The notes: a model not told the origin generated them from the letters alone. Counted from the first letter of the stretch, positions 36,679-59,653 are shown. The stretch is 64,000 nucleotides of DNA from an uncultured beta proteobacterium (GCA_963816315.1 CAWFJZ010000032.1:46030-110029), one strand, 5' to 3'. A program made the numbers and translations.

Positions 36679-36843
36679 GCCGCAAGAGCAGTTTCAACAG
36701 CCAAGCCGGCCGCTTGTGGCACGCTCGGCGCCGCATGACCCTTTGCGCATGAACCCGCTCGCTCGCCTTGCCGCCCGTTGGTCGTCGCCGGCGCCAGCGG
36801 CAGATGCCGCGCCACCGCTGCGAGCCGAGCCTTGCCGCCTGGC

Positions 36844-37707: not shown

Positions 37708-37841
37708 ATGGCCGGCACGGCGCCGGGCCGCCGCACGGACAGGCCGGCGAGCCGAGGCACAATGCTGCATCTCTCACGATCTGCCCTCGCGCCCGGCAGC
37801 GGCGCTGCTGCAACTGACTTTTTCCTGTGTCGCAGACCCAC

Positions 37842-41548: not shown

Positions 41549-41641
41549 GGCAAGTTCAGCGAATGCGAGTTGAGAAAGGATAGTTCGCCCATCGGAAGCA
41601 AGGAAACAAGCGCTCCGGGTACGGCCTTCGCGGCCCAATGG

Positions 41642-41667
41642 AAAAGGGCTGCCAAGGCAGCCCTTTC
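41642..41667 (-). terminator. rho-independent terminator after pilin copy 1
   Basis: Minus strand reads GGGCTGCC-tt-GGCAGCCC followed by TTTTC, 17 nt after the pilin stop. Confidence 0.6.
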
Positions 41668-41683
41668 TCGCGATCGCAGGCGT

Positions 41684-42109
41684 TTACACGCAGGACTTGG
41701 GAAGGAACTTCGCAAGCATGTCGGAGCTGCAGGTCCAGACGACCGAGCCGCCGCTCAACGACGGGGTCATGCGCACGAGACAACCGTTAACCAGCGTGCT
41801 TGCAACACCGCACATCGTCGAAGTCAGGACGCCGCCCGTGCTGTTGGTGGGCAGGCCGGAGTATTTGCCGTTAGCCACCAGCGACACCCCGGCGGTGACA
41901 CCTGTGCAGCTACCAGAATCGGTACAAGCAGCGACGATTTCCCCACGCTGGCCGTCGATCAGCGCAAACGCCTCCGACACCTGCGAGCGAGCGATGTAGT
42001 CCTGGTAAGCCGGCAGCGCGATGGCAGCCAGGATGCCGATGATCGCAACAACGATCATCAATTCGATCAGCGTGAAGCCCTTTTGTAGGCCTTTGGAAAT
42101 TCGGTTCAT
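41684..42109 (-). CDS. pilA: type IVa major pilin (copy 1)
   Basis: Class III leader and prepilin cleavage site ([38 protein letters not shown]), C-terminal disulfide loop (C...C). AAGGAG RBS 8 nt upstream. Confidence 0.9.
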
Positions 42110-42154
42110 TAGCTAACTCCTTTGAGGGGGTGGTGGGCGGATCACGAAGAAACA

Positions 42155-42170
42155 AGCGAACACCATGCCA
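42155..42170 (-). promoter_or_regulatory. sigma54-type -24/-12 promoter for pilin copy 1
   Basis: Minus strand TGGCATggtgtTCGCT (consensus TGGCAC-N5-TTGCW), about 45 nt upstream of the ATG. Confidence 0.5.
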
Positions 42171-42258
42171 TGGGGCTTCACAAAGCTCTGAGGGTCGCTT
42201 TCCACGTTTCGCTGACGAAAATCGTCGCCAGACTGTTTCGCATAGGGTCAACCGCGAC

Positions 42259-42288
42259 AAAAAAAGGGCTGCCGAGGCAGCCTTTTTT
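42259..42288 (-). terminator. rho-independent terminator after pilin copy 2
   Basis: Minus strand AGGCTGCC-tc-GGCAGCCC followed by a run of seven T. Confidence 0.6.
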
Positions 42289-42302
42289 GCGATCGCAGGC
42301 GT

Positions 42303-42728
42303 TTACACGCAGGACTTGGGGAGGAACTTCGCAAGCATGTCGGAGCTGCAGGTCCAGACGACCGAGCCGCCGCTCAACGACGGGGTCATGCGCACGAGAC
42401 AACCGTTAACCAGCGTGCTTGCAACACCGCACATCGTCGAAGTCAGGACGCCGCCCGTGCTGTTGGTGGGCAGGCCGGAGTATTTGCCGTTAGCCACCAG
42501 CGACACCCCGGCGGTCACACCTGTGCAGCTACCAGCATCGGTACAACCCTCGACGATCAACCCGCGCTGCCCGTCGATCAGCGCGAACGCCTCCGACACC
42601 TGCGAGCGAGCGATGTAGTCCTGGTAAGCCGGCAGCGCGATGGCAGCCAGGATGCCGATGATCGCAACAACGATCATCAATTCGATCAGCGTGAAGCCTT
42701 TTTGCAGGCCTTTGGAAATTCTGTTCAT
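42303..42728 (-). CDS. pilA: type IVa major pilin (copy 2)
   Basis: 141 aa, identical to copy 1 except for four residues in GQRG[E/L]IV[AA/EG]CTD[S/A]GSC. Confidence 0.9.
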
Positions 42729-42772
42729 TGACTAACTCCTTTGAGGGATGGTGGGCGGATCACGCAGAAACA

Positions 42773-42788
42773 TGCGAACGCCGTGCCA
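42773..42788 (-). promoter_or_regulatory. sigma54-type -24/-12 promoter for pilin copy 2
   Basis: Minus strand TGGCACggcgtTCGCA, in the same position relative to the ATG as in copy 1. Confidence 0.5.
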
Positions 42789-43034: not shown

Positions 43035-43331
43035 ATGTTGTTCAGCTGGTTCGACGCCGCCGCCGCCAAGGAGTTTGGCACCGACCTCGCCCGTTTCTAT
43101 GTCGAGAGAGTTCCCGCCGATTCGGGCGTGAACGAAAAGAAGTTCGCCGCGAAGAACAAGGAGGTGATCGACAAGATGGCACTGCGGGTGGCGCAATTCA
43201 AAGAAGCGAACACACTGAACACCTACAAGAAGGCACAGCTTGGCAACGCCTTCAAGTGGGCCTTGCGCGATGCCGGCTACGACACGGCCTACATCGATCG
43301 CCTGACGAGTTGGCTCGTCACGCGACTCTAG
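43035..43331 (+). CDS. small hypothetical protein (98 aa), first gene upstream of the GT41 array
   Basis: The composition is unlike GC-shadow ORFs (K/F/Y/N-rich: MLFSWFDAAAAKEFGTDLARFYVERVP...NKEVIDKMALRVAQFKEANTLNTYKKAQLGNAFKWALRDAGYD). It ends 25 nt before paralogue A. Confidence 0.5.
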   Translation: MLFSWFDAAAAKEFGTDLARFYVERVPADSGVNEKKFAAKNKEVIDKMALRVAQFKEANTLNTYKKAQLGNAFKWALRDAGYDTAYIDRLTSWLVTRL

Positions 43332-43356: not shown

Positions 43357-45717
43357 ATGCTGTCCTGGCTCCGTCGAAACAAGCCCGCGCCCAAACCTCC
43401 GGCCCAAGCGAATCCATCGCCGAAGCCGCTCGTCTCGTCATCGTCCAGCGGCACTGAAAGCGAGGCGCTCAGAAAGAGCGGCAACGCGCTGCTGAACCGG
43501 GGCCAAGTCGAGCAGGCCATGCGCGCATACCGCCAAGCCATCGAACTCGACCCCAGCAATCAAGGCGCCTGGGTCAACCTCGGCTTCTTGCTCAATGGTC
43601 GCCGTGAGTTTGACGAAGCCAAGGCCGTTCTCCATCGGGCCGTCGAACTCGATCCGAACAGCGACGACGCGCTGTACTTGCTGGGCACCGCCGAGCTGGC
43701 GCTCGACGATGAGGTTGCTGCGATGTCCAATTTCAGTCGCGCGCTTGCAGTCCGGCCCGACTTAGAACCCTGCCGCCGCGACCTGTGCCTGATCCACCTG
43801 CGCCGCGGTGACCAAGAGGCCGCGCGTCAGGAGGCCGCGCTGGGCATTGCCGCCGACCCGCAGGCCGCCGAGTTGCACGCGATGGTGGGCAACCTTCACC
43901 GTCAAGCCGGCGAGTTGGGGCAGGCTGTCGCCAGTTTCAGGACGGCACTCGCGCTGCTGCCGAATGCAGCACACGTTCAAGCCAGTCTGGGGGAGGCGCT
44001 GCAGGAGCAAGGCAACCTGCCCGAAGCCTTGGCCTGTTACCAGCGCGCCCTGCAGCTCGAGCCGAAGATGCTGGAAGCGCTTCTGAACATGGGCTTGGTG
44101 CGCTATTGCCAAGGTGACCTGACGGCGGCTGTGGGGATCTTTCGAGAGGCGCTGGCGATTGCACCCGACCACATCGAAGTCCTCAGCAACCTCGGCGCGG
44201 CACTGACTGGTTTGCATCGTCTGCCCGAGGCCTGCGAGGTGTTGAACAAGGTGCTTCGCTTAGCCCCGGGCCATGTGGGATCGCATATCAACCTCGGTAT
44301 CGCGCTGTGGGAGCAATCCGATCTCGATGCAGCGCAGGCGAGCTACCGTCGTGCGCTAGCGCTCAGCCCGGATCATGCCGCGGCACATGGCAACCTCGGG
44401 GCCGTCTTGCAAGAGCTTGGCGAACACGACGCGGCTATCGCAAGCTACTGCAGCGCGCTGTCGATCGAGCCGGACTTTGCGGCCGCGCAGAGCAACCTGC
44501 TTTTCACGCTGAACTATCACCCCGACAAGAGCGCAGAGGAAATCTTTGCGGCCTACCGCGAGCACGACGAGCGGGTGGGGGTGCCGCTGCGCAGCACCTG
44601 GCGCGAGCATGGCAACTCGCGCGATGCGACCCGGCGCCTGAAGGTGGGCTATGTCTCGCCGGACTTTCGCAGGCACGCAGTGCGCCATTTCCTGGAGCCG
44701 CTGCTGGCCCACCACGACAAGCGACAGGTCGAGGTATTCGCCTATGCAGAGCTGTCTGTGGAAGACGACATGACAGCACGCTACCGCGGCTTTGCTGACC
44801 ACTGGGTGCCCACGGTCGGCCTGACCGACGAGACCCTGGCCGAACGCATCCGCGCCGACGGTATCGACATCCTGGTCGATCTGGCGGGGCACATGGCGAA
44901 GAACCGGCTCGGAGCCTTCGCGCGCAAGCCTGCGCCGGTGTCGATATCCTGGATGGGGTTCGGCTATACGACGGGGCTGAGCGCCATCGACTACTTCCTG
45001 ACTGATGGCGCCTGCGCTCCCGAAGGCTGCGAGGACTTGTTTGCCGAGCAGCCCTGGCGGCTGGCAACGCCGGGCTATGCCTTTCGTCCGGCCGAAGGCA
45101 TGGGTCATGTCAGCAGCTTGCCCGCGCAAGACCGAGGCTTCGTCACCTTTGGCACGTTGACGCGCTCGGTGCGCATCAATCACCGCTCGATCCGGGTGTG
45201 GTCGCAAATACTGCATCGTGTGCCAGGGGCGCGACTGGTGGTGGACAGCAGCAACTACCAGGACGAGGGCATGCGCAACGCGCTGCTGGACAAGTTCTCG
45301 GCTCACGGCATCGGGCCTGAGCGGCTGGAGCTTGGTTTTCACTCGCCGCCGTGGGATGTGCTGCGCGGCATGGACATTGGCCTCGACTGCTTTCCGCACA
45401 ACTCGGGAACTACCTTGTTCGAGAGCCTGTACATGGGCGTGCCCTTCATCACCCTGGCCGGGCGGCCCAGCGTAGGCCGCCTGGGCAGCGCGATCCTAGA
45501 GGGCGTGGGCCACCCGGAGTGGATCGCGCGCAGCGAGGACGAGTACATCGACATCGTGGTTGCCCTGGCTAGCGATCTGCCGAAGCTGGCCACGTTGCGC
45601 GCGGGCTTGCGGTCGCAGATGCAGGCCAGCGCGGTGATGGACGAGCCCGGCTTTGCGCGCAAGCTGGAGGCGGCTTACCGCGAGATGTTCTCGCGCTGGG
45701 CCGCGGGCCCGGCCTGA
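43357..45717 (+). CDS. TPR + GT41 (OGT/SPINDLY-like) glycosyltransferase, paralogue A (786 aa)
   Basis: About 400 aa of TPRs, then the GT41-like domain from NLLFTLNYHPDKSA (VGYVSPDFRRHAVRHFLEP, FPHNSGTTLFESLYMGVPFITLAG, EDEYIDIVVALASDLPKL). Its N-terminus (MLSWLRRNKPAPKPP) is unique within the array. Confidence 0.85.
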   Translation: MLSWLRRNKPAPKPPAQANPSPKPLVSSSSSGTESEALRKSGNALLNRGQVEQAMRAYRQAIELDPSNQGAWVNLGFLLNGRREFDEAKAVLHRAVELDPNSDDALYLLGTAELALDDEVAAMSNFSRALAVRPDLEPCRRDLCLIHLRRGDQEAARQEAALGIAADPQAAELHAMVGNLHRQAGELGQAVASFRTALALLPNAAHVQASLGEALQEQGNLPEALACYQRALQLEPKMLEALLNMGLVRYCQGDLTAAVGIFREALAIAPDHIEVLSNLGAALTGLHRLPEACEVLNKVLRLAPGHVGSHINLGIALWEQSDLDAAQASYRRALALSPDHAAAHGNLGAVLQELGEHDAAIASYCSALSIEPDFAAAQSNLLFTLNYHPDKSAEEIFAAYREHDERVGVPLRSTWREHGNSRDATRRLKVGYVSPDFRRHAVRHFLEPLLAHHDKRQVEVFAYAELSVEDDMTARYRGFADHWVPTVGLTDETLAERIRADGIDILVDLAGHMAKNRLGAFARKPAPVSISWMGFGYTTGLSAIDYFLTDGACAPEGCEDLFAEQPWRLATPGYAFRPAEGMGHVSSLPAQDRGFVTFGTLTRSVRINHRSIRVWSQILHRVPGARLVVDSSNYQDEGMRNALLDKFSAHGIGPERLELGFHSPPWDVLRGMDIGLDCFPHNSGTTLFESLYMGVPFITLAGRPSVGRLGSAILEGVGHPEWIARSEDEYIDIVVALASDLPKLATLRAGLRSQMQASAVMDEPGFARKLEAAYREMFSRWAAGPA

Positions 45718-45733
45718 GTTCAGGCTAGCAGAC

Positions 45734-48322
45734 ATGTTCGCTTCATTGAAGAAGAAACTGTTCGGCGGCGCGGCGAAGAGCCAGCCGGACATGTCGGCGC
45801 GCGTTGCCGCCGCACCGCCAACAGAAGCCGAGACCGGCGCCTCGGCGTTCAAGCAGCGCGGCAATGCACTGCGCGAACAGGGCCATCTACAGGAGGCCGT
45901 GCAATGCTATCGCCAAGCTCTGGCAGCAGCGCCCAACGATGTCGGCGCGCTGGTCAATCTGGGCTTTGTGCTCAGCGAGCTCGGGCAGCACGTGGAGGCT
46001 CGCCCTCATCTCGAGAAGGCAATCGGACTCGACCCGAAGCAGGACGATGCCTTGTACATACTAGGCACCATCGAACGCGCCACAGGCAGCGCGCACAAGG
46101 CGATCGAGCGCTTTCGCTCGACACTGGCCCTGCGACCCGATTTCTCGATCTGCCGGCTCGATCTGTGCCGCTTGCTGTTCGAACACGGGTTCTTGCAAGA
46201 GGCCAGGCAAGCCGTCACCGCCGGCATCGCCATCGAACCCGACTCGGCCGACCTGCATTGCTACCTAGGCAATCTGCATCACGAAGCGCGTGAGCTGGAC
46301 AAAGCTGTCGCGTGCTTCCAGACGGCATTGGCACTTCAGCCGAACTACGCACCCGCGTATCAAGGCTTGGCCATGGCGCATTCAAATCTCGGGACGGCCC
46401 TTCAAGCTCAGGGGAAGTTCGACGCTGCCGCAGCGGCTTACCTTCGCGCGTTGGAACTGAGGCCCGATCACGCGCAGGCGCACTGCAGTCTGGCCTCAGT
46501 GCTCCACGCGCAAGGGCGGTTGAACGACGCGATCCAGAGCTATAAGACCGCGCTCTCGCTGCAGCCGGATCTCACCGAAGCTCATGCAGACTTGGGAACC
46601 GTTTTTCACGACAAGGGCGACCTGCCTGCCGCGGTCGAGAGCTATCGAGCTGCGCTCGCGATCGAGCCGGGTTTTGCGCAAGGTCATATCAATCTTGCGT
46701 TGGTGCTGCAGGCCCAGGGCAAGTTCGATGAAGCCGTCAGGAGTTATGAGACGGCGGTTGCGCTCATGCCGGCCAATCCTGAAGCCCACTGCGGCTTGGG
46801 AACTGCATTGCAGGATCAGGGAAAGCAAGCCGCCGCGATAGCCAGCTATCGCATCGCGATTTCCCTGAATCCTGAATACGCTGACGCACACAGCAACCTC
46901 GGGACTCTTCTTCAGGCTCAAGGAAAGCTCGACGCCTCGCTGACGAGTTATCGCACGGCGCTTTCGTTGAAGCCCGACAGCAGCATGGCGCACGGCAACG
47001 TCGGTTCTGTTCTACAGGAAATGGGCGAGAACGACGCGGCGATCGAAAGCCTGCGACGCGCACTCGCGCTCAATCCGGACTACGCGATTGCTCAGTACAC
47101 CTTGCTTTTCACGCTGAACTATCACCCCGACAAGAGCGCGCAGGAGATCTTCGCGGCTTACCGCGAGCACGACGCGCTGGTGGGGGTGCCGCTGCGCAGC
47201 ACCTGGCGCAAGCATGGCAACTCGCGCGATGCGACGCGGCGGCTGAGGGTGGGTTATGTCTCGCCGGACTTTCGCAAACACGCGGTGCGCCATTTCCTCG
47301 AGCCGCTGCTGGCCCACCACGACAAGCGACAGGTCGAGGTGTTCGCCTATGCAGAGCTGACGGTGGAAGACGACATGACAGCACGCTATCGCGGGCTGGT
47401 CGATCACTGGGTGCGCACCGTCGGCCTGAGCGACGAGGCTCTGGCCGAACGCATCCGCGCCGACGGCATCGACATCCTGGTCGATCTGGCGGGACACACG
47501 GCGAAGAACCGGCTCGGAGCCTTCGCGCGCAAGCCGGCGCCGGTGTCGATGTCGTGGCTGGGATTCGGCTACACGACGGGGCTGAGCGCCATCGACTACT
47601 TTCTGACTGATGGCGCCTGCGCTCCCGAAGGCTGTGAGGACTTGTTTGCAGAGCGACCTTGGCGGCTGTCAACGCCGGGCTATGCCTTTCGTCCGGCCGA
47701 AGGCATGGGCCCCGTCAGCAGCCTGCCCGCGCAAGACCGAGGCTTCGTCACCTTTGGCACGTTGACGCGCTCGGTGCGCATCAACCACCGCTCCATCCGG
47801 GTGTGGTCGCAAATACTGCATCGTGTGCCAGGATCGCGATTGGTGGTGGACAGCGGCAACTACCGGGACGAGGGCATGCGCACCACGCTGCAAGACAAGT
47901 TCTCGGCCCATGGCATCGGCCCCGAGCGGCTCGAGCTCGGGTTTCACACACCGCCGTGGGACGTGCTGCGTGGCATGGACATTGGCCTCGACTGCTTTCC
48001 ACACAACTCGGGGACTACCTTGTTCGAGAGCCTGTACATGGGCGTGCCCTACGTCACCCTCGCCGGGCGGCCGAGCGTGGGCCGCCTGGGCAGCTCGATC
48101 TTGCACGGCGTGGGCCACCCGGAGTGGATCGCGCGCAGCGAGGACGAGTACGCCGACATCGCGGTAGCCCTGGCCAGCGATCTGCCGAAGCTGGCTGCGC
48201 TGCGCGCGGGCTTGCGGGCGCAGATGCAGGCCAGCGCGGTGATGGACGAGCCCGGGTTTGCGCGCAAGGCCGAGGCGGCTTACCGCGAGATGTTCTCGCA
48301 CTGGGCCGCAGGCCCGGCCTGA
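45734..48322 (+). CDS. TPR + GT41 glycosyltransferase, paralogue B (862 aa)
   Basis: Start at the internal ATG 45734 (MFASLKKKLFGG). About 480 aa of TPRs plus the GT41-like domain. The last ~370 codons are identical to paralogue D. Confidence 0.85.
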   Translation: MFASLKKKLFGGAAKSQPDMSARVAAAPPTEAETGASAFKQRGNALREQGHLQEAVQCYRQALAAAPNDVGALVNLGFVLSELGQHVEARPHLEKAIGLDPKQDDALYILGTIERATGSAHKAIERFRSTLALRPDFSICRLDLCRLLFEHGFLQEARQAVTAGIAIEPDSADLHCYLGNLHHEARELDKAVACFQTALALQPNYAPAYQGLAMAHSNLGTALQAQGKFDAAAAAYLRALELRPDHAQAHCSLASVLHAQGRLNDAIQSYKTALSLQPDLTEAHADLGTVFHDKGDLPAAVESYRAALAIEPGFAQGHINLALVLQAQGKFDEAVRSYETAVALMPANPEAHCGLGTALQDQGKQAAAIASYRIAISLNPEYADAHSNLGTLLQAQGKLDASLTSYRTALSLKPDSSMAHGNVGSVLQEMGENDAAIESLRRALALNPDYAIAQYTLLFTLNYHPDKSAQEIFAAYREHDALVGVPLRSTWRKHGNSRDATRRLRVGYVSPDFRKHAVRHFLEPLLAHHDKRQVEVFAYAELTVEDDMTARYRGLVDHWVRTVGLSDEALAERIRADGIDILVDLAGHTAKNRLGAFARKPAPVSMSWLGFGYTTGLSAIDYFLTDGACAPEGCEDLFAERPWRLSTPGYAFRPAEGMGPVSSLPAQDRGFVTFGTLTRSVRINHRSIRVWSQILHRVPGSRLVVDSGNYRDEGMRTTLQDKFSAHGIGPERLELGFHTPPWDVLRGMDIGLDCFPHNSGTTLFESLYMGVPYVTLAGRPSVGRLGSSILHGVGHPEWIARSEDEYADIAVALASDLPKLAALRAGLRAQMQASAVMDEPGFARKAEAAYREMFSHWAAGPA

Positions 48323-48376
48323 GTTCGGGGCTTGCCGGCATGTTCACGTCGTTGAAGAAGAAGCTGTTCGGGAACG
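47218..48376 (+). repeat. identical tract 1, copy a (3' end of B + spacer + first 12 codons of C)
   Basis: Matches 52040-53198 at an offset of 4822 nt. Spot-checked lines are identical, and so are the six-frame ORF translations (47669..48301 = 52491..53123, 47823..48167 = 52645..52989, 48049..48267 = 52871..53089). Confidence 0.85.
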
Positions 48377-50244
48377 GGACCACGCGGCTTCAAACCGCCG
48401 AACTCTTAGAGCAAGGCCAAGCAGCCGAAGCGCGGGGCGAGGTCGATGAAGCAGAGCGGCTTTATCGGCGTGCGGTTGCGGCCGACGATGCGTCAGCAGA
48501 TGCACATATGAATCTGGGTAACGTCTTGAACGCGAAAGGTCATGGGTTGGCCGCGGTTGAGTCGTACGAGCGGGCTATCTCGATCAACGCCAAGCACGCT
48601 TCCGCACACTACAACTTGGGCCTCGCGCTGCTTTACGCGGGCGACAACGCGCGAGTTGTACAACTCTTTCGCACAGCAGTTCGGCTTCGTGAGGCGTTCC
48701 CGCAGGCTTGGGTCGGTTTGGCGCTGGCACTGGAAGCTCAAGGCGATTTCGAAGGGGCCATTGAAAGCTACCGCCAAGCGGTGCGTGTGAAGCCTGACTT
48801 TGTCGAGGCGCACAGAAACCTCGGGTTGATCTGCCTCCAGCGAGGTCAGGTCAAGGCAGCGGACGAGAGCTATCGCAGGGCGCTGCTGGCCAGTCCTGGA
48901 GATGCCGAGTCATACCTCGGCCTCGCTAGCGTCCTGAAGGAACGAGGCGACATCGATGCGGCGATCGAGGCGTGTTGTAAGGCGCTGGATGTTGATCCGA
49001 ACCACATTGCCGGGCGGAGCAACTTGCTGTTTGCTCTCAACTACCACCCCGACAAAAGCGCGGAGGAGATCTTTGCGGCTTATGTCGAATACGACGAGCG
49101 CTTTGGTCTGCCGCAACGCCGTAGCTGGCGCGCTCACGACAACGATCCGAACACGGCTCGGCGATTGAAGGTTGGTTATGTCTCACCAGACTTCAATCAT
49201 CACCCGGTGCGCCACTTTCTCGAGCCTCTGCTCGCGAACCATGACAAGACCGCGGTGGAGATCTACGCATACGCCGAACTGACACAGGAGGACGCCGTCA
49301 CTTCGCGCTACAGGGCCATCGTTGACCATTGGATTCCAAGCAGGGGCTTGACCGACGCTGCGTTGGCCGCGCGCATTCGTGACGACAAGATCGATGTCCT
49401 GGTGGACCTGGCAGGGCACACCATGAACAGTCGTCTCGGTGCGTTTGCGATCAAACCGGCACCGGTATCGATGTCGTGGCTCGGCTACGGCTACACAACA
49501 GGGCTGAGCGCCATCGACTACTTCCTTGCTGACAGCGCAAGTGCACCGCAGGGCGCCGACGGCCTGTTTGCCGAACGCCCCTGGCGCCTTGCAACCCCTG
49601 CCTATGCCTACCGGCCGGCCGACGGGATGGGCCCGGTCGGCACGTTGCCGTCGGCTCGGCGCGGCCATGTCACGTTCGGCACATTGACGCGGGCCGTGCG
49701 AATCAATCATCGATCGATTCGCGTCTGGTCGGAGATACTCAGGCGGGTGAAGGGCGCTCGGTTGGTCGTGAACAGCAGAAGTTACCTGGATGCCGACATG
49801 CGGTCGAGGCTTGCTGAGAGGTTCGCCGAGAACGGCATCGCAGCGGACCGGCTTGAGCTTGGTTTTTCCTCCCCGCCGTGGGACGTGTTGCGCGATATGG
49901 ACATCGGCCTCGACTGCTTTCCGCACAACTCGGGCACGACACTGTTCGAATCGCTGTACATGGGTGTGCCCTACGTCACGTTGGCCGGGCGGCCCAGCGT
50001 GGGCCGCCTGGGCAGCTCGATCTTGCACGGCGTGGGCCACCCGGAGTGGATCGCGCGCAGCGAGGACGAGTACGCCGACATCGCGGTGGCCCTGGCCAGC
50101 GATCTGCCGAAGCTGGCCGCGCTGCGCGCGGGCTTGCGGGCGCAGATGCAGGCCAGCGCGGTGATGGACGAGCCCGCTTTCGCACGCAAGCTGGAGGCGG
50201 CTTACCGCGAGATGTTCTCCCGCTGGGCCGCGGGCCCGGCCTGA
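48340..50244 (+). CDS. TPR + GT41 glycosyltransferase, paralogue C (634 aa)
   Basis: Start ATG 48340 (MFTSLKKKLFGN). Short, divergent TPR region (about 250 aa) plus a GT41-like domain (NLLFALNYHPDKSA...). Confidence 0.85.
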   Translation: MFTSLKKKLFGNGTTRLQTAELLEQGQAAEARGEVDEAERLYRRAVAADDASADAHMNLGNVLNAKGHGLAAVESYERAISINAKHASAHYNLGLALLYAGDNARVVQLFRTAVRLREAFPQAWVGLALALEAQGDFEGAIESYRQAVRVKPDFVEAHRNLGLICLQRGQVKAADESYRRALLASPGDAESYLGLASVLKERGDIDAAIEACCKALDVDPNHIAGRSNLLFALNYHPDKSAEEIFAAYVEYDERFGLPQRRSWRAHDNDPNTARRLKVGYVSPDFNHHPVRHFLEPLLANHDKTAVEIYAYAELTQEDAVTSRYRAIVDHWIPSRGLTDAALAARIRDDKIDVLVDLAGHTMNSRLGAFAIKPAPVSMSWLGYGYTTGLSAIDYFLADSASAPQGADGLFAERPWRLATPAYAYRPADGMGPVGTLPSARRGHVTFGTLTRAVRINHRSIRVWSEILRRVKGARLVVNSRSYLDADMRSRLAERFAENGIAADRLELGFSSPPWDVLRDMDIGLDCFPHNSGTTLFESLYMGVPYVTLAGRPSVGRLGSSILHGVGHPEWIARSEDEYADIAVALASDLPKLAALRAGLRAQMQASAVMDEPAFARKLEAAYREMFSRWAAGPA

Positions 50245-50261
50245 GTTCGGGGCTTGCAGGC

Positions 50262-53144
50262 ATGTTCGCGTCGTTCAAGAACAAGCTGTTCGGCGGCGCG
50301 GCGAAGAGCAAGCCGGACACGTCGGCACGTGTTGCCGCCGCACCGCCAACCGAAGCCAAAGCCGGCGCCTCGGAGTTCAAGAGGCGCGGCAACGCGCTGC
50401 GCGAGCAGGGCCATCCACAGGAGGCGGTGCAGTGCTATCGGCAGGCCCTCGCACTGGCGCCCAACGATGTCGGCGCGCTGGTCAACCTGGGTTTCGTGCT
50501 GAGCCAGCTCGAGCAGTTCGTGGAGGCTCGCTCGCACCTCGAGAAGGCGGCTCTGCTCGACCCGAAGCAGGACGATGCCTTGTACATCCTGGGCACCATC
50601 GAGCGCGCCACGGGTAACCCGGACAAGGCGATCGAGCGCTTCCGCTCGACGCTGGCCCTGAAGCCCGACTTCTCGATCTGTAGGCTCGACTTGTGTCGCC
50701 TGCTGTTCGAGCGCGGGTTCGTTCACGAGGCCAAGAACGTCGTCGCAGCCGGCATCGCCGTCGAGCCAAGCTCGGCCGACCTGCACCACTACCTAGGCAA
50801 TCTGCATTACGAGGCCCGCGAGCTGGATGCTGCCGTCAAGAGTTTCGAGCGCGTAACGGCGCTTCAACCCGACTTGGCGCCAGCGCATCAAAGCTTGGCC
50901 ATGGCGCTTCAGTTGTCCGGGAAGTTGGACGCCGCAATCGACAGCTATCGCCGTGTGATCGCTTTGGTACCGGACTCTGCTGATCTTCATTCGAATCTCG
51001 GGACGGCTCTTCAGGCTCAGGGGAAGCTCGACGCGGCGGCAGCGGCGTACCGTCGGGCATTGGAGTTGAGGCCGGAATATGCGCAGGCGCATTGCGGTCT
51101 GGCCTCAGTGCTCTACGCGCAAGGACGTTTTGATGCGGCGGAGGAAAGCTATCTCAAGGCGCTCGAATCGAATCCGAGTTTCATCGAAGCGCTTGCCGGT
51201 CTGTCGGCGACGCTTCAAGCTCAAGGCCGATTGAACGAGGCTGTTTCCCGGCTCGAACACGCTGTGCTCCTCCAGCCAAATGAGCCTTCCAGGCACTCGC
51301 TGCTGGCAGCGGCTTTTCACGCGCAGGGTCGGTTGAACGACGCAATCAAGAGCTACAAGACCGCGCTTCTACTAAAACGGGATCTCACGGAAGCCCATGC
51401 CAACTTGGGAACCGTTTTTCACCACAACGGCGACCTGCTTGCTGCGATCGAGAGTTATCGAGCTGCGCTCGCGATCGACCCGAATTTTGCGCAAGTTCAT
51501 ATCAATCTTGCCTCGGTGCTGCAGGCCCAAGGCAAAGTCGGCGAGGCCATCAGGAGTTACGAGAAGGCAGTTGCGCTCGTGCCAACCAATGCTGAGGCCC
51601 ACTGCGGCTTGGGAACCGCATTGCAGGATCAGGGACAACAATCTGCCGCGATGGCCAGCTATCGCATCGCGATTTCCCTGAACCCTGGCTACGCCGACGC
51701 ACACAGCAACCTCGGAACCATTCTTCAGCAACAAGGAAAGCTCAATGCCGCGTTGACGAGCTACCGCAACGCGCTTGCGTTGAAGCCCGACAGCGGCTTG
51801 GCGCACGGCAATGTCGGTTCTGTTCTACAGGAAATGGGCGAGCACGACGCGGCGATCGAAAGCCTGCGACACACACTTGCTCTCAAGCCGGACTACCCCA
51901 TCGCCCAGTACGCCTTGCTCTACCTGCTTTTCACGCTGAACTATCACCCTGACAAGAGCGCGCAGGAGATCTTCGTGGCCTACCGCGAGCACGACGAGCG
52001 GGTGGGGGTGCCGCTGCGCAGCACCTGGCGCAAGCATGCCAACTCGCGCGATGCGACGCGGCGGCTGAGGGTGGGTTATGTCTCGCCGGACTTTCGCAAA
52101 CACGCGGTGCGCCATTTCCTCGAGCCGCTGCTGGCCCACCACGACAAGCGACAGGTCGAGGTGTTCGCCTATGCAGAGCTGACGGTGGAAGACGACATGA
52201 CAGCACGCTATCGCGGGCTGGTCGATCACTGGGTGCGCACCGTCGGCCTGAGCGACGAGGCTCTGGCCGAACGCATCCGCGCCGACGGCATCGACATCCT
52301 GGTCGATCTGGCGGGACACACGGCGAAGAACCGGCTCGGAGCCTTCGCGCGCAAGCCGGCGCCGGTGTCGATGTCGTGGCTGGGATTCGGCTACACGACG
52401 GGGCTGAGCGCCATCGACTACTTTCTGACTGATGGCGCCTGCGCTCCCGAAGGCTGTGAGGACTTGTTTGCAGAGCGACCTTGGCGGCTGTCAACGCCGG
52501 GCTATGCCTTTCGTCCGGCCGAAGGCATGGGCCCCGTCAGCAGCCTGCCCGCGCAAGACCGAGGCTTCGTCACCTTTGGCACGTTGACGCGCTCGGTGCG
52601 CATCAACCACCGCTCCATCCGGGTGTGGTCGCAAATACTGCATCGTGTGCCAGGATCGCGATTGGTGGTGGACAGCGGCAACTACCGGGACGAGGGCATG
52701 CGCACCACGCTGCAAGACAAGTTCTCGGCCCATGGCATCGGCCCCGAGCGGCTCGAGCTCGGGTTTCACACACCGCCGTGGGACGTGCTGCGTGGCATGG
52801 ACATTGGCCTCGACTGCTTTCCACACAACTCGGGGACTACCTTGTTCGAGAGCCTGTACATGGGCGTGCCCTACGTCACCCTCGCCGGGCGGCCGAGCGT
52901 GGGCCGCCTGGGCAGCTCGATCTTGCACGGCGTGGGCCACCCGGAGTGGATCGCGCGCAGCGAGGACGAGTACGCCGACATCGCGGTAGCCCTGGCCAGC
53001 GATCTGCCGAAGCTGGCTGCGCTGCGCGCGGGCTTGCGGGCGCAGATGCAGGCCAGCGCGGTGATGGACGAGCCCGGGTTTGCGCGCAAGGCCGAGGCGG
53101 CTTACCGCGAGATGTTCTCGCACTGGGCCGCAGGCCCGGCCTGA
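50262..53144 (+). CDS. TPR + GT41 glycosyltransferase, paralogue D (960 aa)
   Basis: Start ATG 50262 (MFASFKNKLFGG). Longest TPR region (about 580 aa) plus the GT41-like domain. Confidence 0.85.
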   Translation: MFASFKNKLFGGAAKSKPDTSARVAAAPPTEAKAGASEFKRRGNALREQGHPQEAVQCYRQALALAPNDVGALVNLGFVLSQLEQFVEARSHLEKAALLDPKQDDALYILGTIERATGNPDKAIERFRSTLALKPDFSICRLDLCRLLFERGFVHEAKNVVAAGIAVEPSSADLHHYLGNLHYEARELDAAVKSFERVTALQPDLAPAHQSLAMALQLSGKLDAAIDSYRRVIALVPDSADLHSNLGTALQAQGKLDAAAAAYRRALELRPEYAQAHCGLASVLYAQGRFDAAEESYLKALESNPSFIEALAGLSATLQAQGRLNEAVSRLEHAVLLQPNEPSRHSLLAAAFHAQGRLNDAIKSYKTALLLKRDLTEAHANLGTVFHHNGDLLAAIESYRAALAIDPNFAQVHINLASVLQAQGKVGEAIRSYEKAVALVPTNAEAHCGLGTALQDQGQQSAAMASYRIAISLNPGYADAHSNLGTILQQQGKLNAALTSYRNALALKPDSGLAHGNVGSVLQEMGEHDAAIESLRHTLALKPDYPIAQYALLYLLFTLNYHPDKSAQEIFVAYREHDERVGVPLRSTWRKHANSRDATRRLRVGYVSPDFRKHAVRHFLEPLLAHHDKRQVEVFAYAELTVEDDMTARYRGLVDHWVRTVGLSDEALAERIRADGIDILVDLAGHTAKNRLGAFARKPAPVSMSWLGFGYTTGLSAIDYFLTDGACAPEGCEDLFAERPWRLSTPGYAFRPAEGMGPVSSLPAQDRGFVTFGTLTRSVRINHRSIRVWSQILHRVPGSRLVVDSGNYRDEGMRTTLQDKFSAHGIGPERLELGFHTPPWDVLRGMDIGLDCFPHNSGTTLFESLYMGVPYVTLAGRPSVGRLGSSILHGVGHPEWIARSEDEYADIAVALASDLPKLAALRAGLRAQMQASAVMDEPGFARKAEAAYREMFSHWAAGPA

Positions 53145-53198
53145 GTTCGGGGCTTGCCGGCATGTTCACGTCGTTGAAGAAGAAGCTGTTCGGGAACG
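52040..53198 (+). repeat. identical tract 1, copy b (3' end of D + spacer + first 12 codons of E)
   Basis: See copy a. Mismatches bound the tract at 47217/52039 (g/c) and 48377/53199 (g/c). Confidence 0.85.
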
Positions 53199-55744
53199 CG
53201 GCGAGCAAGCAAGGGGAGTCGGCGCGCGGTGCCGCCGTATCGAGCGAAGCCGAGGCCAACGCCTCGGAATTCACGCAGCGCGGCAACGCGCTCCGCGAAC
53301 AGGGCCGCCTACAGGAAGCTGCACAGTGCTATCGGCAGGCCCTGGCAGCATCGCCCTACGACATCGGCGCGCTGGTCAACCTGGGCTTTGTGCTGAGCGA
53401 GCTCGAACAATACGTGGAGGCTCGCTCGCCTCTCCAGAAGGCAGCGTTGCTCGACCCGAAGCAAGACGATGCCCTGTACATCCTGGGCACCATCGAGCGC
53501 GCTACCGGCAACCAGGACAAGGCAATCGAGCACTTTGGCGCGACGCTGGCCCTGCGACCCGACTTCTCGCTCTGCCGGCTCGATCTGTGCCGTCTGCTGT
53601 TTGAGCGCGGGTTCGTGCAAGAGGCCAGAGAAGTCGTCAACACCGGCATAGCCATCGACCCCAACTCGGCCGACCTGCACTACTACCTAGGCAATCTACA
53701 TAACGAAGCGCGCGAGCTGGATGAGGCCGTCGCGTGCTTCCAGAAGGCGTTGGCACTTCAGCCGAACTACGCGCCCGCGTATCAAGGCTTGGCCATGGCG
53801 CATTCGAATCTCGGAACAGCCCTTCAAGCTCAGGGGAAGTTCGATGCCGCCGCGGCGGCCTACCGCCGTGCGTTGGAACTGAGGCCCGATCATGCGCAGG
53901 CGCATTGCGGTCTGGCCTCCGTGTCTCACTCGCAAGGGCGTTTGAACGACGCTATACAGAGCTACAAAACCGCGCTTTCGTTGCAGCCGGATTTCACCGT
54001 GGCCTGGGTCAACCTGGGAAATGTCTTTCAAGATCTGGGCGCCCTGCCGAACGCTATCGACAGCTATCAGGCTGCAATTGCGCTGGAGCCAACGATTGCC
54101 GAAGCGCATAACAACCTGGCCACCGCGCTACAAGCACAAGGCAAGCTCAGCGATGCGGTCACGAGCTACGAAACGGCGATCGAACTCAAACCGAACTACG
54201 CCGAGGCTCACTGCAATTTGGGGACGGTGTTGGCCGCGCTGGGCGATAACCCTGCAGCCATCACGAGGTATCGACTGGCGATATCCATGGCCCCCGACTA
54301 TGCCGATGCTCATAGCAATCTTGGCAATCTTCTTCAAAGCTGTGGTCAGCTAGGCGCTGCACACGAGAGTTACACCAAAGCTCTTTCGTTGACGCCTGAC
54401 AGCGCCACTGCGCACCGCAACCTGGGAGGCGTATTTCAGGAAATGGGCGAGCACGACGCGGCGATCGAAAGCTTGCAACATGCACTCACGCTCAAACCGG
54501 ACTGCGCCATCGCGCAGTTCATGTTGCTCTTCACGCTGAACTATCACCCCGACAAGAGCGCGCAAGAGATCTTTGCGGCCTATCGCGACTACGACCAGCG
54601 GGTGGGCCTGCCGCTGCGCAGCAGCTGGCGCGAGCATGGCAACTCGCGCGACTCATCCAAGCGCCTGAAGGTGGGCTATGTCTCGCCCGATTTTCGCCAG
54701 CACGCGGTGCGCCACTTCCTCGAGCCGCTGCTGGCCCACCACGACAAGCGACAGGTCGAGGTGTTCGCCTATGCAGAGCTGTCGATGGAAGACGCCATGA
54801 CGGCCCGCTACCGCGGCTTCGCCGACCACTGGGTGCCCACCGTCGGCCTGACCGACGAGATGCTGGCCGAACGCATCCGCGCCGACGAGATCGACATCCT
54901 TATTGATCTGGCGGGGCAGACGGCGAAGAACCGGCTGGGGGTCTTTGCGCGCAAGCCTGCGCCGGTGTCGATGTCGTGGCTGGGCTTTGGCTACACAACG
55001 GGGCTGAGCGCCATCGACTACATGCTCACCGACAGCGCAAGCACCCCCGAAGGCAGCGAAGACTTGTTTGCCGAGCAACCTTGGCGGCTAACGACGCCAG
55101 GCTATGCCTATCGTCCGGCCAATGGCATGGGCCATGTCAGCAGCTTGCCGGCGCAAGACCGGGGCTTCATCACCTTCGGCACGTTGACGCGCTCGGTGCG
55201 CATCAACCACCGCTCTATCCGAGTGTGGTCGCAAATACTGCATCGCTTGCCAGGGGCGCGACTGGTGGTGGACAGCAGCAACTACCGGGACGAAAGCATG
55301 CGCAACGCGCTGCTGGACAAGTTCTCGGCCCATGGCATCGGTCCCGAGCGGCTGGAGCTTGGTTTTCATTCACCGCCGTGGGATGTGCTGCGCGGCATGG
55401 ACATCGGGCTGGACTGCTTTCCGCACAACTCGGGCACGACGCTGTTCGAGTCGCTCTACATGGGTGTGCCCTACGTCACCCTCGCCGGGCGGCCGAGCGT
55501 GGGCCGCCTGGGCAGCTCGATCCTGCAGGGCGTGGGCCACCCCGAGTGGATCGCCGACAGCGAGGACGAGTACGTTGAGTTGGCCGTAGCGCTGGCCAGC
55601 GATCTGCCCAAGCTGGCTGCGCTGCGCGCGGGCTTGCGCGCGCAGATGCAGGCCAGCGCGGTGATGGACGAGCCCGCCTTCGCACGCAAGCTGGAGACGG
55701 CTTATCGCGAGATGTTCTCGCGCTGGGCCGAAGGCTCGGCCTGA
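53162..55744 (+). CDS. TPR + GT41 glycosyltransferase, paralogue E (860 aa)
   Basis: Start ATG 53162 (MFTSLKKKLFGN). About 480 aa of TPRs plus the GT41-like domain. Confidence 0.85.
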   Translation: MFTSLKKKLFGNAASKQGESARGAAVSSEAEANASEFTQRGNALREQGRLQEAAQCYRQALAASPYDIGALVNLGFVLSELEQYVEARSPLQKAALLDPKQDDALYILGTIERATGNQDKAIEHFGATLALRPDFSLCRLDLCRLLFERGFVQEAREVVNTGIAIDPNSADLHYYLGNLHNEARELDEAVACFQKALALQPNYAPAYQGLAMAHSNLGTALQAQGKFDAAAAAYRRALELRPDHAQAHCGLASVSHSQGRLNDAIQSYKTALSLQPDFTVAWVNLGNVFQDLGALPNAIDSYQAAIALEPTIAEAHNNLATALQAQGKLSDAVTSYETAIELKPNYAEAHCNLGTVLAALGDNPAAITRYRLAISMAPDYADAHSNLGNLLQSCGQLGAAHESYTKALSLTPDSATAHRNLGGVFQEMGEHDAAIESLQHALTLKPDCAIAQFMLLFTLNYHPDKSAQEIFAAYRDYDQRVGLPLRSSWREHGNSRDSSKRLKVGYVSPDFRQHAVRHFLEPLLAHHDKRQVEVFAYAELSMEDAMTARYRGFADHWVPTVGLTDEMLAERIRADEIDILIDLAGQTAKNRLGVFARKPAPVSMSWLGFGYTTGLSAIDYMLTDSASTPEGSEDLFAEQPWRLTTPGYAYRPANGMGHVSSLPAQDRGFITFGTLTRSVRINHRSIRVWSQILHRLPGARLVVDSSNYRDESMRNALLDKFSAHGIGPERLELGFHSPPWDVLRGMDIGLDCFPHNSGTTLFESLYMGVPYVTLAGRPSVGRLGSSILQGVGHPEWIADSEDEYVELAVALASDLPKLAALRAGLRAQMQASAVMDEPAFARKLETAYREMFSRWAEGSA

Positions 55745-56317
55745 GTTTCGGGGCTCACAGGCATGTTCACGTCGTTGAAGAACAAGCTGTTCGGCAGCAC
55801 AGCAAAGCAGCCGCAACCGCCCGAACCCCAGGCCGACGCCGCGGCGGTCAAGAAACGCGGCAACGCACTGCGCGAACAAGGCCATCTACAGGAGGCCGTG
55901 CAGTGCTATCGCCGGGCCCTGGCAGCAGCGCCCAACGATGTCGGCGCGCTGGTTAACTTGGGATTTGTGCTGAGCGAGCTCAAGCAGCATGCGGAGGCTC
56001 GCTCGCATCTCGAAAAGGCCATTCAGCTCGACCCGAAACAGGACGATGCCTTGTACATCCTTGGCACCATCGAGCGCGCCACCGGCAATCCGGACCAGGC
56101 GATCGAGCGCTTTGGCGCAACGCTGGATCTCAAGCCCGACTTCTCGATGTGCCGGCTCGAGCTGTGCCGCCTGCTGTTCGAGCGCGGTCGTGCTGACGAA
56201 GCCAAGCAGGTCGTCCAAGCCGGTATCGCCATCGACCCCGCCTCGGCCGATCTGCACTACTACCTGGGCAATCTGCATCACGAAGCTCGTGAGCTGGATG
56301 CGGCCATCTCGTGCTTC
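55334..56317 (+). repeat. identical tract 2, copy a (3' end of E + spacer + first 185 codons of F)
   Basis: Matches 57278-58261 at an offset of 1944 nt. ORF translations are identical (55370..55885 = 57314..57829, 55471..55689 = 57415..57633), and F and G proteins are identical through ...AISCF. Confidence 0.85.
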
Positions 56318-57688
56318 GAGCGGGCGTTGTCCATCAGTCCGGACTACGCCGAGGTGTATGGCAACCTGGCCAATTCGTTGCAAGAGCGGGGCAACTTGGA
56401 CCGTGCAGTCGATTGCGCGCGAAGGGCGCTGCAGCTGCAGCCGGGACTCGATGCAGCTCAGAACAACCTTCTGTTCGCGTTGAACTACCACCCCGACAAG
56501 AGCGCGCAGGAGATTTTTGCGGCCTACCGCGAGTACGACGAGCGCGTGGGGCTGCCACTGCGCAACACTTGGCGCGAGCATGCCAACTCACGCGACGCGT
56601 CCAAACGCCTGAAGGTGGGCTATGTCTCGCCGGACTTTCGCCAGCACCCGGTTCGTCATTTTTTGGAGCCACTGCTGGCCCACCACGACAAGCGTTTGGT
56701 CGAAGTGTTCGCCTACGCAGAACTGTTGCTGGAAGACGCAACAACATTGCGTTATCGCACCTACGTGGATCACTGGATCGCCACTGCCGGCCTAAGCGAC
56801 GATGCGCTTGCCGACCGGGTTCGCTCTGACGGCATCGACATCCTGCTCGACCTGGCCGGACACACTGGCAAGAATCGATTGGGCGTCTTCGCGCGCAAGC
56901 CTGCACCGGTGTCGATGTCGTGGTTGGGCTTCGGATACACGACGGGCCTGACTGCCATCGACTACATGCTCACCGATGGCGCGAGTGCTCCCGAAGGTAG
57001 CGAAGATTTGTTTGCCGAGCAGCCCTGGCGGCTGGCAACGCCGGGCTATGCCTATCGTCAGGCCGAAGGCATGGGCGCAGTGAGTGCTCTGCCGGCGCAA
57101 GACAGAGGCTTCGTCACCTTCGGCACCTTGACGCGCTCGGTGCGCATCAACCACCGCACCGTGCGGGTGTGGTCGCAAGTACTGCATCGAGTGCCAAGGG
57201 CGCGACTGGTGGTGGACAGCATGAACTATCGAAACCCATCGGTGCGAGACGAGCTGACCCGGAAGTTCGCCGAGAACGGCATCGGTCCCGAGCGGCTGGA
57301 GCTTGGTTTTCATTCACCGCCGTGGGATGTGCTGCGCGGCATGGACATCGGGCTGGACTGCTTTCCGCACAACTCGGGCACGACGCTGTTCGAGTCGCTC
57401 TACATGGGTGTGCCCTACGTCACCCTCGCCGGGCGGCCGAGCGTGGGCCGCCTGGGCAGCTCGATCCTGCAGGGCGTGGGCCACCCCGAGTGGATCGCCG
57501 ACAGCGAGGACGAGTACGTTGAGTTGGCCGTAGCGCTGGCCAGCGATCTGCCCAAGCTGGCTGCGCTGCGCGCGGGCTTGCGCGCGCAGATGCAGGCCAG
57601 CGCGGTGATGGACGAGCCCGCCTTCGCACGCAAGCTGGAGACGGCTTATCGCGAGATGTTCTCGCGCTGGGCCGAAGGCTCGGCCTGA
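55763..57688 (+). CDS. TPR + GT41 glycosyltransferase, paralogue F (641 aa)
   Basis: MFTSLKNKLFGS. About 260 aa of TPRs plus the GT41-like domain. The 5' 555 nt are identical to G and the 3' 411 nt are identical to E. Confidence 0.85.
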   Translation: MFTSLKNKLFGSTAKQPQPPEPQADAAAVKKRGNALREQGHLQEAVQCYRRALAAAPNDVGALVNLGFVLSELKQHAEARSHLEKAIQLDPKQDDALYILGTIERATGNPDQAIERFGATLDLKPDFSMCRLELCRLLFERGRADEAKQVVQAGIAIDPASADLHYYLGNLHHEARELDAAISCFERALSISPDYAEVYGNLANSLQERGNLDRAVDCARRALQLQPGLDAAQNNLLFALNYHPDKSAQEIFAAYREYDERVGLPLRNTWREHANSRDASKRLKVGYVSPDFRQHPVRHFLEPLLAHHDKRLVEVFAYAELLLEDATTLRYRTYVDHWIATAGLSDDALADRVRSDGIDILLDLAGHTGKNRLGVFARKPAPVSMSWLGFGYTTGLTAIDYMLTDGASAPEGSEDLFAEQPWRLATPGYAYRQAEGMGAVSALPAQDRGFVTFGTLTRSVRINHRTVRVWSQVLHRVPRARLVVDSMNYRNPSVRDELTRKFAENGIGPERLELGFHSPPWDVLRGMDIGLDCFPHNSGTTLFESLYMGVPYVTLAGRPSVGRLGSSILQGVGHPEWIADSEDEYVELAVALASDLPKLAALRAGLRAQMQASAVMDEPAFARKLETAYREMFSRWAEGSA

Positions 57689-58261
57689 GTTTCGGGGCTC
57701 ACAGGCATGTTCACGTCGTTGAAGAACAAGCTGTTCGGCAGCACAGCAAAGCAGCCGCAACCGCCCGAACCCCAGGCCGACGCCGCGGCGGTCAAGAAAC
57801 GCGGCAACGCACTGCGCGAACAAGGCCATCTACAGGAGGCCGTGCAGTGCTATCGCCGGGCCCTGGCAGCAGCGCCCAACGATGTCGGCGCGCTGGTTAA
57901 CTTGGGATTTGTGCTGAGCGAGCTCAAGCAGCATGCGGAGGCTCGCTCGCATCTCGAAAAGGCCATTCAGCTCGACCCGAAACAGGACGATGCCTTGTAC
58001 ATCCTTGGCACCATCGAGCGCGCCACCGGCAATCCGGACCAGGCGATCGAGCGCTTTGGCGCAACGCTGGATCTCAAGCCCGACTTCTCGATGTGCCGGC
58101 TCGAGCTGTGCCGCCTGCTGTTCGAGCGCGGTCGTGCTGACGAAGCCAAGCAGGTCGTCCAAGCCGGTATCGCCATCGACCCCGCCTCGGCCGATCTGCA
58201 CTACTACCTGGGCAATCTGCATCACGAAGCTCGTGAGCTGGATGCGGCCATCTCGTGCTTC
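57278..58261 (+). repeat. identical tract 2, copy b (3' end of F + spacer + first 185 codons of G)
   Basis: See copy a. The tract is bounded by t/c at 55333/57277 and g/c at 56318/58262. Confidence 0.85.
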
Positions 58262-59653
58262 CAGAAAGCGTTGGCTCTTCGGCCGGACTATCTGGAGGTG
58301 CACAACAATCTTGGCAACAGCTATCTCGCACAAGGCGAACTCGAAGCTTCGCTCGAGTCTTATCAGAAGGTGATTTTGCTCGACCCGCGCTTCCCGAATG
58401 CCTACGGCACGATGCTGTTCCCGCTGAACTACCACCCAGATCTCGGCGCGGACGAAATATTCGCGGCATATCGGGCCTACGACGCCCATGTCGGGCTACC
58501 GCTGCGCTCTGCTTGGCGGGCGCACGACAACGATCGCAGCATCACGCGGCGTCTCCGGGTGGGCTATGTCTCGGCCGACTTCTATGAGCACGCGGTGCGG
58601 TTTTTCCTGGAACCCTTGCTGGCAAACCACGACAAAGCCACCGTTGAAATATTTGCCTATGCCGAGCTGGACAAAGAAGACTCGACGACGGCAATTTACA
58701 GACGATACGTGGACCACTGGACGCCGACCATGGACCTATCGGATGACGCGCTCGCTGAGCGCATTCGGTTCGACAGGATCGACATCCTCGTCGACCTCGC
58801 GGGGCACACGGCGAAGAACCGGCTGGGTGTGTTTGCACGAAAGCCAGCTCCGGTTTCACTCTCATGGCTCGGCTACGGATATACAACCGGACTCGGTGCC
58901 ATTGACTACTTTTTGACTGACAGCATCAGCGCACCACCAGGCAGCGAGAGCTTGTTCGCTGAAAAGCCTTGGTGCCTGTCAACTCCCGCATGCTCCTACC
59001 GACCGGCGGTGCAAATGGGCAATGTCAGCAGTTTGCCGGCACAGAGCAACGGTGTGGTCACCTTCGGCACGCTGACGCGCGCAATACGGATCAATCACCG
59101 CTCCATTCGTGTTTGGGCCGAGATTCTGAAGCGAGTACGCGGTTCCCGACTGGTGGTGAACAGCACCAGCTTTCGCGAGCCGGCGATGCGTACCAGTCTG
59201 GCCGAGAAGTTTGCGGTAAACGGAATCGAAAGGGAGCGTCTGCAGATCGGCTATGACACCCCGCCGTGGGATGTGCTGCGCGCTATGGACATCGGGCTCG
59301 ATTGCTTTCCGCACAACTCGGGGACCACGCTGTTCGAAAGCTTGTACATGGGCGTGCCCTTCGTCACTCTGGCCGGCCGACCCAGCGTGGGCCGACTGGG
59401 AAGTTCGGTTTTGCACGGCGCTGGGCACCCGGAGTGGATTGCCCACAGCGAGGACGAGTACATCGACAAGGCGGTCGCACTGGCCAGCGACCTGCCAAAG
59501 CTGGCCGCGTTGCGCGCGGGGCTGCGTGCGCAGGTCGAGGCCAGCCCGATCAGGGACGAGGCCGGGTTCGCCCGCAAGGTGGAATTGGCCTACCGCGAGA
59601 TGTTCGCAATCTGGGCAAATGGAGCAAGCGACGCTCCGGCGGCCAGAACTTGA
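57707..59653 (+). CDS. TPR + GT41 glycosyltransferase, paralogue G (648 aa)
   Basis: MFTSLKNKLFGS. About 265 aa of TPRs plus the most divergent GT41-like domain in the array (MLFPLNYHPDLGA...FPHNSGTTLFESLYMGVPFVTLAG). Confidence 0.85.
   Translation: MFTSLKNKLFGSTAKQPQPPEPQADAAAVKKRGNALREQGHLQEAVQCYRRALAAAPNDVGALVNLGFVLSELKQHAEARSHLEKAIQLDPKQDDALYILGTIERATGNPDQAIERFGATLDLKPDFSMCRLELCRLLFERGRADEAKQVVQAGIAIDPASADLHYYLGNLHHEARELDAAISCFQKALALRPDYLEVHNNLGNSYLAQGELEASLESYQKVILLDPRFPNAYGTMLFPLNYHPDLGADEIFAAYRAYDAHVGLPLRSAWRAHDNDRSITRRLRVGYVSADFYEHAVRFFLEPLLANHDKATVEIFAYAELDKEDSTTAIYRRYVDHWTPTMDLSDDALAERIRFDRIDILVDLAGHTAKNRLGVFARKPAPVSLSWLGYGYTTGLGAIDYFLTDSISAPPGSESLFAEKPWCLSTPACSYRPAVQMGNVSSLPAQSNGVVTFGTLTRAIRINHRSIRVWAEILKRVRGSRLVVNSTSFREPAMRTSLAEKFAVNGIERERLQIGYDTPPWDVLRAMDIGLDCFPHNSGTTLFESLYMGVPFVTLAGRPSVGRLGSSVLHGAGHPEWIAHSEDEYIDKAVALASDLPKLAALRAGLRAQVEASPIRDEAGFARKVELAYREMFAIWANGASDAPAART

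Follow-up and report, generated by a model that had tools for sequence, protein, structure and literature searches.

Our study analysed a window of 64 000 nt from the genome of an uncultured beta proteobacterium (GCA_963816315.1, CAWFJZ010000032.1:46030-110029; positions are counted from the first letter of the window), which carries an array of seven head-to-tail TPR+GT41 (OGT/SPINDLY-like) glycosyltransferase genes and, within this array, a tract of 1159 bp present in two identical copies. The genes, here called A to G, all lie on the + strand: A (43357..45717, 786 aa), B (45734..48322, 862 aa), C (48340..50244, 634 aa, the most divergent paralogue), D (50262..53144, 960 aa), E (53162..55744, 860 aa), F (55763..57688, 641 aa) and G (57707..59653, 648 aa). 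All seven reading frames are intact and the spacers between them are conserved at 16-18 nt. The Pfam family Glyco_transf_41 was matched in 7/7 genes with 137-157 bits, against a cut-off of 25, and many TPR families were matched N-terminally. No GT41 gene was found elsewhere in this genome.

Direct string comparison of 47218..48376 with 52040..53198 (both + strand), which are offset by 4822 nt, found 0 mismatches in 1159 bp. A preliminary description of this DNA had reported the two stretches to be base-for-base identical, and the comparison bears this out without any scattered mismatches (0/1159); the coordinates are also maximal, as the flanking bases differ on both sides (47217 G/C and 48377 G/C). 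In the first copy, the last 368 codons of B, which encode the GT41 catalytic domain, are followed by the stop codon, a 17-nt spacer (GTTCGGGGCTTGCCGGC) and codons 1-12 of C; the second copy has the same structure, with the last 368 codons and the stop codon of D, the same spacer and codons 1-12 of E. The earlier anatomy had put the coding part at about 370 codons and was otherwise as found here. The 5' start of the tract corresponds to codon 495 of B and the equivalent alignment point in D, approximately 37 codons past the LLFTLNYHPD motif that opens the catalytic domain, and at its 3' end it takes in codons 1-12 (MFTSLKKKLFGN) of C and E and stops one base after them. As the tract spans the catalytic part, the catalytic domains of B and D are identical, whereas their TPR parts are neither identical in sequence nor equally long, that of D exceeding that of B by 98 aa (proteins of 862 vs 960 aa).

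The two edges of the tract are of different kinds, in agreement with the abrupt 3' end and the similar but diverged upstream sequence that had been described. On the 3' side, identity at the same offset falls immediately to 28/100, and C and E are unalignable past codon 12. On the 5' side, a shoulder at 47103..47217 (+ strand) is identical to 51925-52039 at 109/115 positions, and further 5' the identity between B and D is 72-92 % per 100 bp, with 80-92 % next to the shoulder. This shoulder may mark where an earlier and longer conversion ended, or a heteroduplex that was repaired in patches. Outside the tract and shoulder, identity at offset 4822 is 17-37 % per 100 bp. Both the 5.18-Mb assembly as a whole and the window itself were searched, the latter by self-BLAST, which the preliminary description had proposed for 43-60 kb. 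These two copies, both on one contig, were the only 100 % matches, and the five other paralogous copies were 73-91 % identical to the tract. Of the 30 species representatives of the genus, nearly all are metagenome-assembled genomes (MAGs), and a comparable array was found only in a sister species (G004), at a syntenic locus with the same pilin and FHA/PP2C neighbourhood and three genes (A4, F4 and G4) rather than seven. This indicates that the copy number of the array changes between sister species. A, A4 and E were each 88-91 % identical to the tract and no outgroup copy was nearer to either flank, so that donor and recipient of the tract are not distinguishable.

Upstream of the tract, B and D are 84.5 % identical over 1406 alignable positions. 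At this level of identity the chance of 1159 straight matches is 0.845^1159, or approximately 1e-85, which excludes chance. A Sawyer-type run test on 707 polymorphic columns with 2000 permutations found 514 consecutive concordant sites between B and D, compared to a permutation maximum of 229. The same test found 159 concordant sites between E and F (maximum 37) and 28 each for B-C and C-D (maxima 17 and 20, respectively), and all four runs exceeded every permutation. By our own arithmetic, 0 differences in 1159 bp place a 95 % upper bound of approximately 0.26 % on the divergence of the tract, which makes it at least 50 times younger than its flanks.

The array shows several signs of conversion, of which the 1159-bp tract is one. 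Another exact tract, 984 bp long, is present on the + strand at 55334..56317, where it covers the 3' end of E, the spacer and codons 1-185 of F, and again at 57278..58261, where it covers the 3' end of F, the spacer and codons 1-185 of G. In addition, the last ~445 nt of C together with the adjoining junction (about 49860-50304) are 89 % identical to B/D, compared to 70 % further upstream, and from this mosaic pattern the 3' end of C appears to be an older conversion patch. Segment trees were inferred from the array genes and the three genes of the sister species, separately for the 5' and 3' parts of the GT domain. The tree of the 5' part placed F with F4 (95/100) and G with G4 (100/100), left C on a branch of 0.4, and showed B and D as each other's closest relatives. 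In the tree of the 3' part F was identical to E, C fell within the cluster on a branch of 0.073, and A4 paired with F4. The two segments thus conflict, in the way that conversion after the split of the two species would produce. A tree of these paralogues carries no meaning unless each segment is treated separately.

We interpret the tract as the footprint of a recent ectopic gene conversion between paralogues of one tandem array, a reading to which we assign a probability of roughly 80 %. Non-reciprocal homologous recombination between misaligned paralogues within the array would have copied at least 1159 bp, which begin at the start of the GT41 catalytic domain and extend across the gene boundary, between the B/C and D/E junctions in either direction. 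On the 3' side the heteroduplex would have halted at codon 12, as the homology of C and E ends there and it could not have extended further; the 5' end lies within continuous homology, behind the 95 % shoulder. An abrupt 3' edge combined with a graded 5' edge is the trace expected of homology-dependent non-reciprocal copying, possibly atop older events. On this reading the event is part of ongoing concerted evolution, by which the catalytic halves and junctions of the seven genes stay alike while the TPR halves, which are presumed to bind the substrate, diverge.

Ectopic conversion and concerted evolution of bacterial duplicates are well known from tufA/tufB of Salmonella, from rRNA operons and from the outer-membrane protein genes babA/babB of Helicobacter pylori. 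The tract resembles these cases in being an identical stretch of about 1 kb bounded by diverged sequence, with silent and non-coding sites homogenised, and in pointing to a homology-dependent process whose end point lies where homology stops. It differs from them in that it belongs to a seven-gene head-to-tail array and crosses a gene boundary, and in its domain-specific outcome (the catalytic half homogenised, the TPR half diverged), which is read here from sequence alone. The mechanism is ordinary, and the tract is a clean case of it in an under-studied family, with a domain-specific pattern that recurs. A literature search for concerted evolution in arrays of bacterial glycosyltransferase genes found no specific work. 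The array documents active concerted evolution among seven bacterial OGT/SPINDLY-like protein glycosyltransferase genes, members of a family whose bacterial roles have barely been studied.

Among the other explanations, purifying selection on the catalytic domain might be thought to hold both copies identical, given that the tract is nearly coextensive with this domain and that the ratio of non-synonymous to synonymous divergence (dN/dS) over it is low in all pairs (0.14-0.23). However, the identity is independent of coding constraint. The coding part of the tract contains approximately 279 synonymous sites with a synonymous divergence (dS) of 0 by the Nei-Gojobori method, and the stop codon and the 17-nt non-coding spacer are likewise identical, whereas over the same codons every other pair has diverged (dS of 0.25 for A-B, 0.37 for B-E, 0.54 for B-F, 0.93 for B-C and 1.36 for B-G). 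Selection is thereby refuted, with next to no probability left to it, and the earlier statement that ordinary purifying selection does not account for the pattern holds. The preliminary description had also left a choice between gene conversion and segmental duplication, of which conversion fits; duplication does not, as the identity is limited to 1159/4822 bp, there is one C, and no alignment of C with E is possible past codon 12. A simple tandem duplication was rejected on the same count, with the intervening C and the 5' part of D each occurring once. A more elaborate form starts from a recent duplication (segmental or tandem) or unequal crossover, of which the tract would be all that is left after the remainder was later overwritten or lost. 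Changes in the copy number of the array (seven genes here vs three at the syntenic locus of G004), the collinearity of A+B with D+E (85.6 % over 3.9 kb), suggestive of an earlier duplication of several genes, and the mutual proximity of B and D in the 5' GT tree would all be in keeping with this. Nevertheless, a period of 4822 bp predicts identity over the full period and two copies of C, whereas the identical part amounts to only 24 % of the period and one C is present. Moreover, no third paralogue is nearer to the TPR part of B or D than these two are to each other (dS of 0.46 for B-D and 0.72 for B-E), which leaves no visible donor for an overwrite, and at least two further events would be needed. 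We consider such a history very improbable. A mobile-element origin of the C-D unit is unsupported, as the interval between the two copies is taken up by C and the 5' part of D, for which Pfam gave TPR and GT41 families only, although no dedicated search for terminal inverted repeats was made.

The identity could also have arisen during assembly or polishing, if copies that are perhaps 97-99 % alike in the cell had been made identical by a collapsed repeat edge or by mis-assigned reads. Several points lend weight to this and count against conversion as we read it. The tract is known from the assembled consensus alone, in a fragmented MAG of 48 contigs and 82.6 % completeness, and both long-read and de Bruijn assemblers are able to render near-identical repeats perfectly identical. 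The genus consists almost entirely of MAGs, the sister genome itself being a MAG of the MFD series with 'contig_'-named contigs. An indel-rich stretch nearby suggests consensus errors: between the Ser/Thr-kinase region at 36782-37900 and its counterpart in G004 (L018:2672-3792) there are 30 single-base gaps in 1135 bp, with the kinase and TerC frames split, which is in keeping with indel errors in the consensus of either MAG or of both, or with real decay, and indicates that the assembly consensus is not error-free. Independent genomes lent no support either: exact look-ups of C and D for sibling strains found none, the 90 % clusters of all seven proteins held this contig and three short contigs of relatives that are 84-92 % identical at the DNA level but no sibling strain, and a metagenome scan with C gave a best match of 65 % protein identity, with no sibling strain or alternative haplotype. 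As B and D have no orthologues in G004, the comparison of orthologues with paralogues by trees is applicable to E/F only. However, homogenisation by an assembler requires copies that are near-identical beforehand, yet the flanks are 84.5 % identical. A recent conversion would consequently be needed even if the copies had been homogenised, and only the word 'perfect' would fall. G004, which from its isolate and contig names apparently comes from the same project and pipeline as this genome, keeps paralogues that are 84-96 % alike distinct, with a longest exact repeat of 183 bp in the syntenic array, and such a pipeline therefore does not by itself homogenise paralogues at that level. The intact frames of all seven genes also argue against an artefact, as do comparable tracts in assemblies whose contig names suggest other assemblers. 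Taken together, an artefact appears unlikely.

Conversion of GT41 genes appears not to be confined to this genome. With A and C as queries, other GT41 loci were fetched, among which tandem arrays were found in several orders. Four other arrays, from unrelated assemblies, contain exact tracts of 319-1207 bp within the GT41 domain, and in each of them identity rises gradually on the 5' side and breaks off abruptly on the 3' side. These measured 1207 bp in locus L084, 993 bp in a Gallionellaceae array (L060), 770 bp in Curvibacter sp. PD_MW3 (L075) and 319 bp in an Oxalobacteraceae array (L071). The contigs of L060 and L075 are NODE_-named, and the contrast with contig_ names suggests different assemblers, as judged from the names only. 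The pattern points to a division of labour within each gene, with a uniform catalytic half and a TPR half free to diverge, that recurs in at least four other lineages. Large arrays also exist without recent homogenisation, as two MAGs of Desulfobulbaceae and Desulfocapsaceae (L080 and L069) carry five tandem GT41 genes each and no exact repeat of >=40 bp. In two of the arrays with exact repeats the units are joined without a stop between them: L084:9827-16072 is a stop-to-stop frame of 2081 aa with three GT41 domains and the 1207-bp repeat, and L075:7625-12169 is one of 1514 aa with two GT41 domains and the 770-bp repeat.

The preliminary description had further proposed that the tract offers a substrate on which the C-D unit could be deleted or expanded, and as a property of the sequence this is correct. 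In silico recombination between the two copies removed exactly 4822 bp and left B (862 aa) and E (860 aa) intact, and the same operation on the 984-bp tract removed 1944 bp and left every remaining gene intact. As both predicted deletions spare the remaining genes, and the sister species has three genes rather than seven, we tentatively raise the rather doubtful idea that the junction-centred tracts are a working part of the locus, in which the 3' catalytic half, the 16-18-nt spacer and the N-terminal peptide would form a portable recombination anchor. If this were true, whole TPR-GT41 genes could frequently be deleted, added or joined in frame to a new partner. The population would then vary in the TPR specificities that decorate pili with a modified sugar, for example as surface variation against pilus-specific phages or grazers. 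Tracts of this kind are also sites where assemblies break, collapse or skip genes, and numbers of genes in this family that are taken from MAGs call for caution.

Among solved structures, the product of the tract was matched best by Arabidopsis SPINDLY (E 1.5e-74) and the OGT of Thermobaculum terrenum (E 9e-71), both across the whole catalytic domain. SPINDLY (SPY), a GT41 protein O-fucosyltransferase (PDB 7Y4I and 8DTF), and T. terrenum OGT (5DJS) share with the array proteins the lack of the intervening domain of human OGT; they differ in being encoded by single-copy genes, compared to seven paralogues here. In SPY, K665 contacts the phosphate of guanosine diphosphate (GDP), and mutating it abolishes activity (PMC9715652). 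An Arg aligns with this residue in all seven paralogues (...SVRINHRS...), as in B near 47780 (...FGTLTRSVRINHRS...). T. terrenum OGT has Met at the aligned position, which indicates that the lysine is not universal in the GT41 family. The Arg keeps the charge, and the donor-binding chemistry of these enzymes may differ from that of both OGT and SPY.

The array is flanked by type IV pilin genes and by a sugar-modification cluster. Two pilin genes in tandem, at 41684-42109 and 42303-42728, lie on the - strand (41684..42728 in all) and point away from the array. PF00114 and N_methyl were matched by the second of them, to which the first is a near-identical paralogue. The downstream cluster, on the opposite strand to the array, encodes an RMNT_CmcI methyltransferase, WbqC, GNAT, a second methyltransferase, a PhyH oxygenase and a DegT aminotransferase. 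Neither the 98-aa ORF just upstream of gene A (43035-43331, + strand) nor the 291-aa ORF beside the pilins (40763-41638, - strand) had a Pfam match. In Synechococcus elongatus, the TPR+GT41 protein Ogt (Synpcc7942_0051) is encoded next to tandem pilA genes and is needed for PilA glycosylation, and ogt-pilin adjacency was found in 38 % of 201 cyanobacterial genomes (PMC9306852). The array shares with this system the TPR+GT41 architecture, the two tandem pilin genes alongside and the lack of a secretion signal. Unlike the single cyanobacterial ogt, it comprises seven paralogues in a betaproteobacterial MAG, with an Arg aligned with the essential lysine and an amino sugar modification cluster alongside, from which the donor sugar is probably not plain N-acetylglucosamine. 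The two pilins are candidate substrates of the glycosyltransferases, and by analogy the array may glycosylate them with a modified amino sugar, the TPR halves setting the choice of target. The link to pilins is here one of adjacency alone, and among the other fetched arrays a pilin gene was found nearby only in G004 and in L021.

Two further repeats were observed at the locus. The pilin genes form a tandem repeat that is 94.9 % identical over 529 bp (41642-42788), and G004 has three pilin copies (L018:7630-9374) compared to two here, which indicates that the pilin copy number varies at this locus too. Within the array, the 3' end of A and all of B (44495-48371) are collinear with the 3' end of D and all of E (51922-55794), the same alignment of 85.6 % over 3.9 kb referred to above, which suggests an older duplication of a multi-gene block that would predate the conversions.

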